Positions 2,086-9,526 of a stretch of DNA of 64,000 nucleotides are shown piece by piece; position 1 is the stretch's first letter, and every line of letters begins with the position of its first letter. The position numbers were made by a program, and so were the translations under genes. The notes under the pieces are model-generated. The model was not told where the DNA came from, searched no databases, and saw only the letters and a list, made by a program, of their open reading frames with translations. This DNA comes from Cardiobacteriales bacterium (GTDB lineage Bacteria > Pseudomonadota > Gammaproteobacteria > Cardiobacteriales > Ostreibacteriaceae), in the NCBI GenBank assembly GCA_965215775.1, contig CBDCEG010000027.1:101860-165859 (forward strand), in the 5' to 3' direction.

Positions 2086-2362
2086 ATCTGTTTTCTTATT
2101 TTTCTTATTTTTTTAAGATTTTGTTAGTTTTGTAAGTTTTTTAGTTAATTAAAAAGTGTTCCATAAAATTAGACCATTACAAGCTCAGCATCATCCTTTA
2201 AGGGGTACATGAAATCAAAATCAATAAAAACATAAATTGTTTTTTTTTGATTAGCTCGATAGTATTTATTGGTATCGGTATAAATACTTAAAAACTCTTC
2301 TTCAGATAATATTTCATATGCTGGTCATTGTTAAAACTCATAGTTACTTCTATATAAATAAT

Positions 2363-2403
2363 AAATAAAGCTCAAAAAAATATGGTTTTTTTGAGCTTTA
2401 TTT
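2363..2403 (-). terminator. Rho-independent-type hairpin downstream of rph (bidirectional A/T tails)
   Basis: aaataaagctcaaaaaaa / tatgg / tttttttgagctttattt is a perfect inverted repeat ~28 nt past the rph stop. Confidence 0.7.
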
Positions 2404-2430
2404 ATTGATTTAATTTTTTTCATACTAAAT

Positions 2431-3147
2431 TTATAATCCCAAAACTTCTCTTTGTTTAATTGTTATTTCTTCAATTCCTTTTTCTGCCAAATCAATCATT
2501 TGATTTAATTCATCGCGTGAAAAAGTTCCATTTTCTGCAGTTCCTTGAATTTCAATAATATTTTTACTTTCATTCATAACTACATTCATATCAGTTTGTG
2601 CGTTTGAGTCTTCAATATAATCTAAATCAAGCACAGGTTCATCATTGAAAATTCCTACAGAAATTGCGGCAACTTGTCCAATTAGAGGGTTTGTTGTTGT
2701 TTTTTGATTTTCAATAAGATAACGAATGCAGTCAGCAAGAGCGATAAACCCACCATTTATTGAAGCGGTTCTTGTTCCGCCATCTGCTTGAATTACATCA
2801 CAATCAATTGTAATCATAATCTCTCCAAGCTGTTTTAAATCAACCACACCACGCAAGCTTCTAGCAATTAATCGTTGAATTTCCATAGTTCGTCCAGATT
2901 GTTTACCTTTGGACGCCTCTCTTTGCATTCTAGTATTTGTTGAACGCGGCAACATTCCATACTCTGCTGTTACCCAACCTTGTTTTTTACCTCTTAAAAA
3001 ATGTGGAACCTTTTCTTCAACACTTGCTGTGCAAATTACCTTTGTATTTCCAAATTCTACCAAAACTGAACCCTCTGCGTGTTTGGTGAAATTTCTTGTG
3101 AACTTTACTTCTCGTAACTCATTATTTTGTCTATTGCTTGGTCTCAT
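2431..3147 (-). CDS. rph: Ribonuclease PH
   Basis: 238 aa with typical RNase PH blocks ([33 protein letters not shown]). Confidence 0.95.
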
Positions 3148-3173: not shown

Positions 3174-4253
3174 TTATAGTTTTTTTAATTCTGCTAAAAC
3201 AGCATTACCCATAGCTTCACAGCCTAGAAGTTTACTATTTTCATCCATGATATCAGCAGTTCTAAAGCCATTATCAAGAACTATATTTATTGCTTTATCA
3301 ATTTTATTTGCAATTATTTGTTCATCAAATGAATAACGCAAAAGCATAATTAATGATGAAATAGTTGCAAGTGGGTTTGCTTTGTCAGTCCCTGCAATAT
3401 CAGGAGCGGAGCCGTGAACAGGTTCATACAATCCCTTTCCATTTGCATCAAATGAAGCGGATGGAAGCATTCCAATAGAGCCTGTAAGCATTGCTGCACA
3501 ATCTGATAAAATATCCCCAAATAAATTCCCTGTAACCATTACATCAAACTGTTTTGGTGCACGAACTAATTGCATAGCTGCATTATCAACAAACATATGT
3601 GATAATTCTACTTCTGGATTATTTTTATGAGCTTTTATAGCTCCTTCACGCCATAATTCTGATACTTCAAGGACATTTGCTTTTTCAACAGAGCAAAGCT
3701 TTCCACCGCGTTTTTTCGCAATATCAAAAGCAACTTTCATAATTCTAGAAATTTCAGTTTCAGAATAAACCATTGTGTTAAAACCTACTTTTTCTCCATT
3801 TCTATCTTCAATTCCTCTCGGTTTACCAAAATAAATCCCACCAGTTAGCTCACGAACAATCATAATATCAAGCCCTGAAACTATATCTTCCTTTAAGCTA
3901 GAAGCACTTGCAAGCTGTGGAAATAAAGTTGCAGGACGCAGGTTTGCAAATAAACCTAGTTGCTCACGAATAGCAAGCAAACCTCGTTCTGGGCGTAAAC
4001 TTCTCTCTAATGTATCATATTTTGGACCACCAATAGCACCCAATAAAATTGCATCCGCTTGTTTTGCAAGCACAACTGTTTCATCAGGCAAAGGCTTACC
4101 ATATTTATCATAAGCACAACCACCAATTAACCCATGGCTAATTTCTATATTTAAAATATTCTCATCTTTTAAATAATTAAGTATTTTTTCAGCTTGTGCA
4201 ACAATCTCTGTCCCTATGCCATCACCTGGCAGTAATAATATTTTTTTTGTCAT
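3174..4253 (-). CDS. leuB: 3-isopropylmalate dehydrogenase
   Basis: 359 aa with [11 protein letters not shown] near the N terminus and the NLFGDILSD motif. Confidence 0.95.
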
Positions 4254-4276: not shown

Positions 4277-5416
4277 TTAATTGATAAAACTGTCATAGGA
4301 ACCAGTCTTTAATATATCAATTTTAAAGTTACTTTCTTTACTTTTAGTAATAATTATACTATCAAAACCTAACCTATCTAATTTTTCAATTGTTGCCAAT
4401 TCTCCTTCTTTTAATTGTAAAATCTTTCTTAAAAGCCAATCAGATAATGCTTTATTTGGATTGGTCATTAATGCTTTAGAATTGTCTTGACATACTTTTG
4501 CATCAAAGACTTTTCCTGTTGGTGCTTCTAGGCTAAAACTTTTATCTCTAGCAGGAAAAAAGCTTGGATATTTTTTGTGAATTATACTTGGAATTCGGAT
4601 ATAAATTTCTCCCATATTCCTTTCTCTTCCTTCTGAATTCCACTGATTTAGTCCACTTTTTTCAAAAACAAACTTTTCTTTATCTTTTATACCGTATAGT
4701 GGTAAAACTACATAATGCTCTCCTTTTATAAGTTTATCTGTAGCAGGTTTGAAGTCATTATTTGAAAATAAATCAAGTAATAAACTAAAAGGGTCTTCAA
4801 TTATATCAACTGGTAATCTAAATGCATTGTTAGGGATTATGAATTTTCTAAATAAAGTACTCTTTGAATAATTAAAAGAGTAAAAATTATGTCCATCTTC
4901 AAATTGTAAACTTGCTTTACTTTCTTTAACAGAATGGATATTTGCAATATCAATTTGTTCATAGTCTGTTTCAAAAAGTAATAACTCATTTTCTCTTCTT
5001 GCTACAATATGATAAATTGATGATTCAATATCATAAATTCTATTTGCCAAATCAATCCTTTGATTTCTATATTCGCCTAATTTATAAGCTAGTTCTTTTC
5101 CTTGAATTTTTTTTAGCTCTTTTGAAAGGCTATTAAATTCTGCAATTTTTTCTGTACTATTATCATTTTTAGAAATAAAAGTTTTTAAGCCTATGCCAAC
5201 AGAATCTAAATCTGCATCAAATGCAGTATCAGAACGCGATAAGTTGTTTGCACCAAAACTGCTACAGAATATGTTTTCTGCAACCCTATAGTTTATAAAT
5301 GGAACCGCACTTTCACTAAAAAGTCCAGATAACTTAGATACAGCAGATAATAGTTTTAAGTAGTTACCCTTATTATCAATGTCTATTTGAGCAAAGCTTT
5401 TTGTATTATTGTTCAT
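4277..5416 (-). CDS. Putative type II restriction endonuclease partner of the adjacent C5-methyltransferase (family and specificity unknown)
   Basis: 379-aa ORF whose start overlaps the methyltransferase stop by 11 nt on the same strand. I do not recognise a named family, so the call rests on context. Confidence 0.5.
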
Positions 5417-6347
5417 ATTTTAATACTTTTTTTATTTCATTAGCGATTGCTTTAATAACAGGGACTGTAACAGAATTTCCAATTTGCTTATATAAAGAAG
5501 AGTTGGACAGTTCCTTGCTTAAAATAAAATCATCAGAATACCCTTGAAATCTAGCACATTCCCTTGGAGTTAATTTTCTAATATCAACCTCATCTATTAT
5601 CAAAGGAACATTATGCCCACCAGTCCCCATATTCGCAGTTAGTGTTGGGCAGACATTACTTTTGTTTTCTCGGACATATTTTCTCCTCCATTGAAAAATA
5701 GAATCTTTATTTAACATTTCTTTTTTTAACTGCTTATAGTAAATACTATTTGTATAATAGTATTTTTCATTTGCACGGTTATCAATAAAATCTTTAGTTT
5801 TTCTTTTTAATGTTATTTTTGCAGGAAAAGAGAAATTATTGAATGCATATTCACTTTTGAAAGCAACAATATAAATTCGTTCTCTATTCTGCGGAATATT
5901 AGCATAGTCTAATGTGTTTAATACCTCACTCTTAACAAAATACCCTCTTTCATTTAACTCATTAATTATTTTATTAAAAGTTCTTCCATCATCATGAGTT
6001 TTTAAATTTTTCACATTTTCTAAAAAAACCACCTTAGGATTTAAATCATCAATGAAACGAAGTATTTCAAAAAAAATATTACCTCTTTTATCCTCAAAAC
6101 CCTTTCTGTGTCCAGCAATAGAAAAAGCTTGGCAAGGGAACCCTGCTGTTAAAATATCAATAGGATCTATATCTTTAGAAGATAATTCTTTTATATCTTT
6201 TTCAAAAAGTTTATGTGTATGGTTATGTCTATATGTTATTGCTGCATATTTATCTATTTCATTTGCCCAAACAATATTAAACCCAGCCTGTTGAAATCCA
6301 AGCTCAACTCCTCCAATACCAGCAAATAAACCACCTACTTTTTTCAT
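5406..6347 (-). CDS. DNA (cytosine-5)-methyltransferase
   Basis: Motifs FAGIGG (I), GFPCQAFS (IV), FLENVKN (VI), QNRERIY (VIII) and GNSVTVPV (X). The ATG at 6347 is preferred over the TTG at 6362 used by the ORF track. Confidence 0.9.
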   Translation of the reverse strand: MKKVGGLFAGIGGVELGFQQAGFNIVWANEIDKYAAITYRHNHTHKLFEKDIKELSSKDIDPIDILTAGFPCQAFSIAGHRKGFEDKRGNIFFEILRFIDDLNPKVVFLENVKNLKTHDDGRTFNKIINELNERGYFVKSEVLNTLDYANIPQNRERIYIVAFKSEYAFNNFSFPAKITLKRKTKDFIDNRANEKYYYTNSIYYKQLKKEMLNKDSIFQWRRKYVRENKSNVCPTLTANMGTGGHNVPLIIDEVDIRKLTPRECARFQGYSDDFILSKELSNSSLYKQIGNSVTVPVIKAIANEIKKVLKYEQ

Positions 6348-6358
6348 ATTTTTAGCTC

Positions 6359-6427
6359 TCAAATAGATGTATTCTCAAAAACCCAAGGGTTTTCGGATTT
6401 GTATTTTTCTTCAAATTGTTTTATCTC
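6359..6427 (-). repeat. Duplicated copy of the leuD 3' end (direct repeat of 8374-8442)
   Basis: 6361-6427 is identical to 8376-8442 and weaker similarity continues ~13 bp. It encodes ..[22 protein letters not shown] plus a stop and sits between the two R-M cassettes. Confidence 0.9.
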
Positions 6428-6466
6428 ATTTTCTTTTTTCATATTTTTCCTCGTCATATTTAACTT

Positions 6467-7315
6467 CTATAAGTTTATATATTTAATTAACTTACATTTT
6501 ATCATATTTGATGGGTTATTAGGGTTTTGCACTTCAATGTTTTGTACTGAAATGGAATCATTTAACTCTATCTTTTTTCTGCTACTTGAAGGGTAAGAAT
6601 TATATTTAGTTAAAGGTAATATTGTAATACATTGAAATTTAGCATTTGATGAGTAGCCGTGGACATAATCAAAAACTTTGTAAGGTTGCTGTAACAACCA
6701 CATACCTCTAATTCTTAGGTTTGTTATTTTAAGAGGGTCAACTGAATTTACTCTTCCTATTTCATTTGTTGGAGAAAAGTCTATCTCAGGAGCCGCTTCA
6801 ATATTTTTGGTTAAATCTTCTTTTAATGAAATATAAACCTCCTCATCAGCCGCATAAATAGACCCATCAATAAACCAAAGTGATGATAATATTTTTGAAC
6901 CTTTCGGGATATGCCCAATAGCATATATAAAATCTTTTTCTGTCCATTCTTCGCAACTTACACAGTGTTTATTTATTAGTGAGCTTGTTGATAGTAATTT
7001 TGATTTTGGGTGTGAGCTATTTAATTGAAGGTCTGATTTAATATTCTCTACTTTCTTAACCTCAATAGCATCTCCACCTTTTATCATTATATCTGGTGGC
7101 GTTCTTGAGCTTCCTTGGTATGAAAACACATCATTATATTTATTAATCTTTGTTTCTTTATCAGCCTCTGTATAGGTATTAGCAAATACATCTTTAATAA
7201 AAGACTCTAGTCCTTCTCCTACACTTATGGCACGATTATTACCTAGTGTAATATTTTTCACTTCTAGCTTTTCTAATTGTGAAATATTATATATTGCTTC
7301 TAAGATATTTGTCAT
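6467..7315 (-). CDS. Type II restriction endonuclease, NgoPII-like (predicted GGCC)
   Basis: 282 aa with a 4-nt overlap with the upstream HaeIII/NgoPII-like methyltransferase. Blocks [18 protein letters not shown] and LRIRGMW match my recollection of R.NgoPII. Confidence 0.7.
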
Positions 7316-8361
7316 ACTGCCACTTTTACTTTTTCAACTTGCTTAAATTTTGATTTTTCTTGTTTAGAAATATTTGCTGTTAATTGTGCTTTAATATTCT
7401 CTGCTAAAAATTTTGCCAAATTCACAGGAACTGCATTTCCAATCATTTTATAACCTGCTGGCACATTTGTATAATGAAAAGTAAATTCATCTGGAAATGT
7501 TTGTATTCTTGCACATTCCCTAACACTTAAGCGTCTGTATAAATGTTCTTTCCCTGGAACAAAAACTCTAATATTTTGCTCTATAAATTTCATTTTTGGT
7601 GCTTGTGGATGGATTGGTGCGTGTCTTCCACCTGCTTGAATTGTATACGATTGTTCGCCCCAACTTCTTACACGATTTCTGGACATATACATTGATGAAA
7701 AACTGCCAATCATATATTCATGATTTGTTACTTCACAATCACTCCCATTTGTTTTATTTTTCTCTTTCGCAGGTATTGCAGTATTTTTTAGGTCTTCAAT
7801 AGTTTCTTTTAATGTAATTTTCGGAAATTTAATTGTTGGAAAATTAAACTCAAAACCCAAATCTTTCCTTACTCCAATAAAGAATACTCTTTTTCTGTCT
7901 TGAGGAACATTATAATCTGAAGCATTTAGCATTTGAAATGAAAGGTTATATCCAATTCCTGCATTTTTAAAAAGTTCTTTAATCCCTTTTAATGCCTCAT
8001 TATGTTTTGAAATGAGCATTCCACTTACATTTTCCGCCAAAAAGAATTTAGGTTGTTTGGCTTCTAATATTCTTATGAAATCATAGAACAATTGACCTCG
8101 CTTATCTTTTATTCCTCTAGCCGCACCTGCTTCACTCCAGCTTTGACAAGGTGGACCACCAATAATTCCATCACACTCTGGAACCTCATCAGCTGGAATA
8201 TTTACAATACTTCTTTTGTCAAGAGTTGTATTAGGATGGTTTTTTTCATAGGTTTCCCAAATTTCTTTGTCGTATTCATTTGCCCAAATAATATCAAATC
8301 CTGCCTTTTGAAATCCAAGATCTAATCCACCTGCTCCTGAAAAAAATGATACTATTTTCAT
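7312..8361 (-). CDS. DNA (cytosine-5)-methyltransferase, M.HaeIII/M.NgoPII-like (predicted GGCC)
   Basis: 349 aa, colinear with M.HaeIII as I recall it ([73 protein letters not shown]). Confidence 0.9.
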
Positions 8362-8373
8362 ATCTCTAAAATT

Positions 8374-9018
8374 TTAAATAGATGTATTCTCAAAAACCCA
8401 AGGGTTTTCGGATTTGTATTTTTCTTCAAATTGTTTTATCTCTTCTTCTTTCTCAAGAGTTAAGCCAATTGCATCTAATCCTTTAAGCATCATATTTTTT
8501 CTAAACTCATCAATTTCAAAATTATAATTTTCACTGCCAACAATTACAATTTGCTTTTCTAAATCAACAGTTATTTCTAGTTGTTTTTTATTACTTAATT
8601 CAAATAACTTATCAATTTGTTGTTCGGTTAGTTTTATTGGTAAAACACCATTTTTAAAACAGTTATTATAAAAAATATCTGCAAAGCTAGGGGAGATAAC
8701 AGCACGAAAGCCATAATCATCTAAAGCCCAAACAGCATGTTCACGAGAAGATCCACAGCCAAAATTTTCTCTGGCAATAAGTATTGTGGAATTTTTATAA
8801 AGTGGATTGTTTAGAATGAAATCTTTATTTATTGGTCGTTTAGAGTTATCCATATTTGGTTGACCTTCATCTAAATAACGCCACTCATCAAATAAATTAA
8901 CCCCAAATCCTAAGCGTTTTATTGATTTTAAAAACTGCTTTGGAATAATTGCATCAGTATCAACATTTGATCTATCTAACGGTGTTACAATTCCTGTTTC
9001 TATTATAAATTTTTTCAT
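8374..9018 (-). CDS. leuD: 3-isopropylmalate dehydratase small subunit
   Basis: 214 aa, colinear with E. coli LeuD ([33 protein letters not shown]). Confidence 0.95.
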
Positions 9019-9027
9019 TTAGTTTCC

Positions 9028-9477
9028 CTATTTTTCTTGTTTGTTTTCGTCTTCAACTGTAAATTCACCTTCAATAATATCCTCTGAAGATTGATTTTGT
9101 TGTTGCTGAGTTTTGCCGTTAAGTATAGTTTTAGAGGCAAAGTTAAAGTTTCTTTTTACAACTTTTGCCAAACTTTGTCTAATTTTAGGAACTAAACCTA
9201 AAAAACCAACAATATCAGTTAAAAATCCAGGAGTAATTAATAAAACTCCACAAATTAATAAAATCATACCTTCTGAAAGTGCCTCAGTAGGCTCTGTTTG
9301 TAGAGTTTGAAGCTTATTAAGTGTGGCTCTCCCTTGTTTTTTTAATTGCCACGATCCAATCATTGCTGTGATAATAACTGTAAAAAATGTTCCCCATCCA
9401 CCAATAATAGAACTAACCTTGCCAATTAGCATTATTTCTATTGCTGTAACAATAATCATCGCTAAAAATAATTTCAT
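9028..9477 (-). CDS. fxsA: FxsA family inner-membrane protein
   Basis: 149 aa with N-terminal TM helices and the LLITPGFLTDIVGF block. Confidence 0.8.
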   Translation of the reverse strand: MKLFLAMIIVTAIEIMLIGKVSSIIGGWGTFFTVIITAMIGSWQLKKQGRATLNKLQTLQTEPTEALSEGMILLICGVLLITPGFLTDIVGFLGLVPKIRQSLAKVVKRNFNFASKTILNGKTQQQQNQSSEDIIEGEFTVEDENKQEK

Positions 9478-9526
9478 AAAATTTTACCTTATATTTTCTT
9501 TAAGAAAACTTATATAATACCTAATA

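Follow-up and report, generated by a model that had tools for sequence, protein, structure and literature searches.

The insertion of restriction-modification (R-M) units with long target duplication was originally reported by Nobusato et al. (2000, Gene 259:99), and Furuta, Abe and Kobayashi (2010, NAR 38:2428, PMC2853133) set out how such events can be recognised, namely by homologues of a restriction (R) and a modification (M) gene in an insert of less than 20 kb that holds no other mobility gene and is flanked by a direct repeat of more than 30 bp, which aligns to a single copy at the empty site of a comparison genome. The repeats often span start or stop codons, the target gene thereby remaining intact, and a Type II R-M system inserted in an operon-like structure had been seen before (Furuta et al., 2010). 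As for the enzymes themselves, two kinds of described systems serve for comparison, i.e. the HaeIII/NgoPII systems and the ATP-dependent enzymes of the NgoAVII/CglI type, which associate an R protein made of a PLD nuclease and a B3-like domain with a helicase-like N/H protein and have a 5-methylcytosine (m5C) methyltransferase as partner. The locus considered here lies in a stretch of 64,000 nucleotides, hereafter the window (positions 101,860 to 165,859 of contig CBDCEG010000027.1), from the draft genome of a Cardiobacteriales bacterium (Gammaproteobacteria, Ostreibacteriaceae; GCA_965215775.1; assembly of ~2 Mb, contig of 182 kb). It corresponds to the minus-strand gene string running from 9477 to 2431 in window positions, where two Type II R-M cassettes, M2/R2 and M1/R1, stand between leuD and leuB. 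We consider it likely that both are imported units, each with M then R, settled in the leuD-leuB spacer, that M2/R2 entered by long target duplication and that the cassettes are transcribed within the host string. As such, the locus adds a good new case, of cross-phylum origin, to a mode of R-M mobility that is already known.

Open reading frames (ORFs) were taken from an ORF listing and assigned to families by Pfam and NCBIfam profile searches. The minus strand carries, in order, fxsA, leuD, M2, R2, a copy of the leuD tail, M1, R1, leuB and rph, and the central part of this string comprises the following features.

8374..9018, minus strand: leuD, 3-isopropylmalate dehydratase small subunit, intact (TIGR00171, 2.4e-79, 265 bits, above cut-off)
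8376..8442, minus strand: direct repeat, copy 1, i.e. the last 22 leuD codons plus one base of the stop codon (67 nt, identical to 6361-6427)
7312..8361, minus strand: M2, HaeIII-type C5 cytosine methyltransferase, GGCC as predicted target (PF00145, 3e-99; PCQ and ENV motifs)
6467..7315, minus strand: R2, restriction endonuclease of the NgoPII family, predicted GGCC (PF09521, RE_NgoPII, 3.4e-103; PADLOC REase_II, 2e-93)
6361..6427, minus strand: direct repeat, copy 2, the leuD-tail copy, running into a TGA stop at 6359-6361
5406..6347, minus strand: M1, C5 cytosine methyltransferase (PF00145, 7e-92; PADLOC MTase_II PDLC03272)
4277..5416, minus strand: R1, Type II endonuclease of 379 amino acids (PF20731, 7e-14; PADLOC REase_II PDLC03479, 4e-192)
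3174..4253, minus strand: leuB, 3-isopropylmalate dehydrogenase, intact (TIGR00169, 3.8e-146, 487 bits)

This arrangement had been reported in a preliminary description of the same DNA, and its gene order, leuD-tail copy and every figure for gaps and overlaps were reproduced from the ORF coordinates: 12 bp between leuD and M2, a 4-nt overlap of M2 and R2, 119 bp between R2 and M1, an 11-nt overlap of M1 and R1, 23 bp between R1 and leuB and 26 bp between leuB and rph. The start of M1 is likely the ATG at 6347; the TTG at 6362 given by the ORF listing falls within the leuD-tail copy, and its use would shrink the R2-M1 gap to 104 bp. That the locus holds two intact, co-oriented Type II m5C R-M cassettes was borne out as well, the proteins being full length with respect to their family models. 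The GC content is ~29-31% across the whole locus, with no compositional break.

As for the repeat, the two leuD tails are identical over 67 nt (8442-8376 and 6427-6361), or 97% identical over 76 nt once extended, and this repeat is found at just these two places in the assembly. The copies are spaced by 2015 bp, with M2 and R2 alone in between and no mobility gene. In the upstream copy, the T ending the repeat is followed by AA from the insert, which provides LeuD with a TAA stop and leaves the protein unchanged; the downstream copy keeps T followed by GA as stop, then come 11 bp and the ATG of M1. Compared with the insertions described by Nobusato et al. (2000) and Furuta et al. (2010), the content of the insert is the same, i.e. 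an M and an R gene with neither integrase nor transposase, its size of 2 kb is below 20 kb, the repeat exceeds 30 bp and runs across a stop codon, the target gene is intact and the surroundings are operon-like. The differences concern the host, an AT-rich gammaproteobacterium of a sparsely sampled family, and the presence of a second, repeat-less cassette directly adjoining M2/R2, no flanking repeat having been found around M1/R1.

The most likely history of the locus is then as follows. Starting from a tight leuC-leuD-leuB cluster, the leuD-leuB spacer would have gained, by horizontal transfer, two Type II R-M units of two genes each, a methyltransferase then an endonuclease with overlapping reading frames. 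M2/R2, 2015 bp with its flank, would have entered exactly at the leuD stop by an integrase-free insertion with long target duplication, with the leuD tail copied exactly over 67 nt on its far side and the LeuD protein unaltered, and M1/R1 would fill the rest of the spacer with no visible duplication. All that follows from the two copies being fully identical is that the duplication is either young or kept uniform. This would be a tidy natural case of integrase-free R-M mobility, combining insertion in a stop codon, an exact duplication and the same host protein; the phenomenon, operon-like insertion included, is already in the literature and the locus opens no new question in this respect. Of note, a chimeric mini-ORF of 32 codons (6359-6457, minus strand) joins 10 new codons in frame with the duplicated last 22 codons of leuD and is probably a by-product of insertion.

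A direct repeat would also result from a Campbell-type integration, in which an M2/R2 fragment, circular or allelic and already equipped with a leuD tail (e.g. after excision in a related strain where M2/R2 followed leuD), recombines with leuD by a single homologous crossover. R-M units between long direct repeats can indeed amplify and excise (Furuta et al., 2010, in their discussion), and weak extra similarity over ~13 nt upstream of the exact repeat possibly reflects a diverged donor allele. This similarity, however, falls in A/G-rich sequence of low complexity, identity over the 67 nt is 100%, and no other leuD-linked copy of the cassette was found in relatives or at 66 surveyed leuD-to-leuB junctions. 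Campbell-type integration is thus possible but rather unlikely, and less likely than de novo target duplication, which is retained in what follows.

Regarding the origin of the cassettes, the 51 other genomes of the host order were searched whole-genome with R1 and R2 only. There, R2 has no full-length match but a single match to a 55-residue fragment (in G026), and R1 has homologues of only 38-40% identity in 3 of the 51 genomes, counted irrespective of their position relative to leuD. In the global protein collection, the best relatives of R1 and R2 are 79-84% identical, those bearing a name belonging to Tenacibaculum, Polaribacter and Olleya, i.e. marine Flavobacteriaceae. More specifically, R1 has homologues at 84% identity in metagenomic contigs and at 82% in Tenacibaculum, R2 shares 79-81% identity with Tenacibaculum and metagenome homologues, and M2 is 81% identical to the methyltransferase of Tenacibaculum maritimum. 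With respect to the closest Tenacibaculum and Polaribacter relatives of the cassettes, R1, R2 and M2 show ~80% protein identity and 75-78% DNA identity, M1 only 54% protein identity. By comparison, the host LeuD is 71% identical to that of the sister genome, and LeuD and LeuB are 71-74% identical to those of the nearest sequenced relative. On this comparison, the cassettes are recent imports. They document recent gene flow, in the form of whole R-M units, between marine Flavobacteriaceae and a gammaproteobacterium that is AT-rich and resembles them in base composition. Together with the target duplication, this foreign origin supports the earlier view of the cassettes as mobile units.

The closest named homologue of M2/R2, in T. 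maritimum (L013:2231-3958), has the same order of M then R and the same 4-nt overlap. At the DNA level, it is 78% identical to the window from 8363 to 6480, that is from 2 nt before the ATG of M2 to just before the stop of R2, in other words over the two ORFs alone. In T. maritimum, the pair is preceded by a tyrosine integrase gene and by a gene encoding a C-protein-like helix-turn-helix (HTH) protein of 104 amino acids, which overlaps the methyltransferase start; both the HTH gene and the integrase are absent from the window locus, where no C-protein gene stands beside M2/R2. Both units of the window are made of coding sequence alone.

High similarity to genes of Bacteroidota, in a draft of 33 contigs, could alternatively suggest that the cassettes are inactive relics or result from chimeric assembly with flavobacterial DNA. 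Against relics, the four ORFs are full length relative to their family models and both methyltransferases hold the catalytic PCQ and ENV motifs. Against a chimera, the contig that surrounds the cassettes measures 182 kb, spacers of 12 bp and 23 bp connect them with host genes, a duplicate of the host leuD tail accompanies them, and contamination is estimated at 0.43%. Such an explanation is extremely improbable, and an assembly chimera was rejected on the host junctions, the full-length ORFs and the low contamination estimate.

The state of the junction before the imports can be read from relatives. One genome of a sister family (G002) has leuC, leuD, 85 bp and leuB, another genome (G016) has leuC, leuD and leuB with 4-nt overlaps, and at least 12 further genomes, of the sister family f3, have a leuD-leuB gap of 8-35 bp; the ancestral state is a tight leuC-leuD-leuB cluster. 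In the window, the position held by leuC in relatives is occupied by fxsA, 9 bp upstream of leuD (9019-9027). The sole other genome of the host family (G001), a sister genome, has the order leuC, leuD, a GST-like gene, a gene of 173 amino acids for which no family was assigned, leuB and asd, with the cargo at L012:8772-9933 and asd following leuB where the window has rph; neither of the two cargo genes was found in the genome of the window. In 66 other public loci with leuD upstream of leuB, the gap was at most 100 bp in 41 and exceeded 500 bp in 15, and homologues of M1, R1, M2 or R2 occur at none of the 66 junctions. Considering the cargo of the sister genome and these large gaps, together with the lack of R-M homologues at the 66 junctions, the leuD-leuB junction tolerates cargo and is not a general landing site for R-M systems. 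Pseudomonas-type clusters are also arranged as leuC-leuD-(extra gene)-leuB-asd. The junction takes inserted genes there as well, but the window differs in its cargo of two R-M systems, in the lack of leuC and in having rph instead of asd after leuB. As to the suggestion of a small defense hot spot, two cassettes are indeed adjacent, yet the cargo in the sister genome is not defensive, the 66 junctions are devoid of homologues, and the 51 order relatives, searched with R1 and R2, gave one R2 fragment and distant R1 matches only, so that the idea is weakly supported overall.

The predicted specificity of M2/R2 draws on strong homology. M2 aligns with M.HaeIII (PDB 1dct; E 4e-130) without interruption of collinearity, from residues 1-326 to residues 1-323 of the latter and through the variable target-recognition region, and R2 covers positions 1-261 of the 262 of the RE_NgoPII model. 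With a target-recognition domain matching that of M.HaeIII and an adjoining full-length enzyme of the NgoPII family, M2/R2 is predicted to be a GGCC system of HaeIII/NgoPII type, as first proposed. GGCC was also expected to be rare, which it is, with 268 sites in 2 Mb and an observed/expected ratio of 0.22 under a maximal-order Markov model over the whole genome. GGCC, CCGG, GCGC and ACGT do not occur in the six genes of the locus, and neither CCGG nor ACGT occurs in the 64-kb window. The genome holds just three C5 methyltransferases; the third forms with an HpaII-family endonuclease a pair overlapping by 11 nt (contig 29, 64910-67082; L107:5911-8083), wedged co-directionally between an esterase gene and rsmA-recC, and no long flanking repeat was found around it.

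Transcription of the cassettes involves the ends of the string, described by the following features.

9028..9477, minus strand: fxsA, first gene of the co-directional string (PF04186, 1.6e-27; NF008528)
2431..3147, minus strand: rph, RNase PH, last gene of the string (TIGR01966, 2e-113)
2360..2406, both strands: perfect hairpin with a 21-bp stem and T runs on both strands, terminator-like

The hairpin located just after rph is the sole strong terminator-like site between 2000 and 10000, which makes read-through from upstream of fxsA plausible; promoters internal to the string are likewise plausible from the sequence. It holds true that the 23 bp left after R1 offer leuB no space for an intergenic promoter. 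Such tightness is nevertheless weak evidence, being common in this compact genome rather than peculiar to leuB: the starts of fxsA and of the divergent rsmE are only 49 bp apart (9478-9526), where promoters, judging from the coordinates, must overlap coding sequence too. The cassettes would most likely be transcribed within the fxsA-leuD-...-leuB-rph string, or from promoters inside upstream coding sequence, and leuB and rph would then depend on transcription passing through the cassettes or starting within them.

Several points weigh against the proposed import, target duplication and co-transcription. Neither genomes nor metagenome contigs of the same species offered an empty site, exact-protein look-ups with LeuD and LeuB and a metagenome scan returning nothing closer than 67%. 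The target duplication is consequently read from one genome and from more distant relatives, which have one leuD tail followed directly by leuB or by other genes. The structure alone does not decide the order in which M1/R1 and M2/R2 were inserted. As for transcription, sigma-70-like hexamer pairs number 31 in the sequence against 40.9 expected in shuffled sequence, a count that neither supports nor excludes internal promoters, some pairs lying inside R1 upstream of leuB (e.g. 4380 to 4353). Finally, depletion is not specific to GGCC, avoidance of four-base palindromes being extreme in this genome, and the same whole-genome model gives observed/expected ratios of 0.10 for ACGT, 0.14 for CCGG, 0.28 for GTAC, 0.30 for TCGA, 0.35 for GCGC and 0.39 for GATC.

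The leucine pathway deserves separate attention, as the preliminary description placed the cassettes inside the leu operon. The genes leuA (long form), ilvC and ilvD are present and intact, as are leuD and leuB, but leuC was not found in any of the 33 contigs, where the sole large subunit of the aconitase family is an aconitase of 884 amino acids. With an assembly 93% complete and a smallest contig of 5.7 kb, leuC may lie in unassembled sequence or may have been lost. In a canonical leu operon, leuC would stand directly upstream of leuD, where fxsA is found here. The original wording is therefore overstated, as leuC is absent from the assembly and the flanking genes are fxsA and rph; what is seen is a remnant leuD...leuB junction. 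Because leuC is missing from the assembly, a location within an essential biosynthetic operon is unproven.

Beyond location, it had been proposed that retention of the cassettes is coupled to leucine prototrophy. In such an adaptive reading, the position would have been selected because keeping and expressing the cassettes is tied there to prototrophy, which would turn the locus into a defence hot spot reinforced by addiction. The tight packing with its 23-bp spacer before leuB, the lack of a strong terminator until after rph and the two cassettes side by side would fit, as would the third m5C cassette, of HpaII type, which on another contig also sits between housekeeping genes of the same direction. 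Position-enforced retention is weak, however, because, were the cassettes precisely lost, leuD and leuB would simply adjoin as in the ancestor, so that leuB does not enforce retention. Furthermore, a working pathway is unproven with leuC absent from the assembly, the sister genome has non-defence cargo at the junction, none of the 66 other junctions carries an R-M homologue, and insertion at a stop codon is expected simply as harmless (Furuta et al., 2010). The adaptive reading is thus quite improbable and the coupling itself speculation.

In M1/R1, both genes raise questions of relationship. M1 carries every conserved block of C5 methyltransferases, FPCQ and ENV included. Its best solved relative is M.HhaI, and both M.HhaI and M.HaeIII are matched in the conserved blocks only. 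The nearest homologues, at 70-74% identity, adjoin an unrelated PDDEXK_5 endonuclease of 250-258 amino acids in Campylobacterota-like and Tara Oceans contigs (L103:2840-4541, L105:3001-4729). A single family of methyltransferases, of the M1 type, is thereby associated with two unrelated endonuclease partners. Deducing the site of M1 from its homologues was abandoned, since their names are uninformative and the closest ones are paired with this other endonuclease; CCGG is probably already taken by the third, HpaII-type system. In T. dicentrarchi, an M-R pair is 75% identical in DNA to M1/R1 over 6146-4314, the first third of M1 differing, and the neighbours of this R1-type pair are other R-M genes. 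Because of this divergent first third and of the unrelated endonuclease adjoining the nearest relatives of M1, M1/R1 looks mosaic.

R1 matches the PADLOC Type II endonuclease model PDLC03479 from end to end. Residues 243-358 form a B3-like DNA-binding domain of NgoFVII type, recognised by PF20731 and by a profile match to R.NgoAVII (PDB 4rd5; E 5.5e-5), and hence homologous to the C-terminal domain of the NgoAVII/CglI enzymes, with which R1 also shares an m5C methyltransferase partner, here M1. By contrast, the ~240 N-terminal residues have no Pfam match at E up to 10, neither to PLD nor to another family, and no PDB match when searched with a profile of 93 diverse homologues. In 89 of these 93 family members, PF20731 is likewise the only match. 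An AlphaFold2 model based on 29 close homologues was poor, with a mean predicted local distance difference test (pLDDT) score of 51 and values below 50 in the N-terminal domain. Residues conserved in the family (D63/D67, G76-x-K78 and E93) suggest a PD-(D/E)XK-like centre. Besides, no ATPase gene adjoins R1, the next gene being leuB at 23 bp. An assignment of R1 to the NgoAVII/CglI type was rejected with neither a PLD domain nor an adjacent gene for a DEAD-family N/H ATPase, and R1 therefore belongs to a separate and widespread Type II family (PADLOC PDLC03479). It flags a large uncharacterised family of endonucleases combining an unclassified N-terminal domain with a B3-like domain.

Taken jointly, these features allow a more ambitious proposal, which we regard as unlikely: the cassettes would have shed their control elements, i.e. 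C-protein gene and promoter region, and become wired into the fxsA-leuD-leuB-rph unit, with R1 joining a novel nuclease domain to a B3-like reader and cutting without the ATPase partner needed by NgoAVII/CglI enzymes. If true, the levels of restriction and methylation would follow the expression of fxsA-leuD-leuB-rph, the expression of leuB and rph would depend on passage through defence genes, and the locus would represent a domesticated, operon-embedded form of R-M. Outside the string, ORFs of IS3-family transposases (829-1988) and partial copies occupy the window from 1 to 2180, at most 450 bp from the rph terminator, and these elements may have contributed to the local rearrangements and to assembly breaks.

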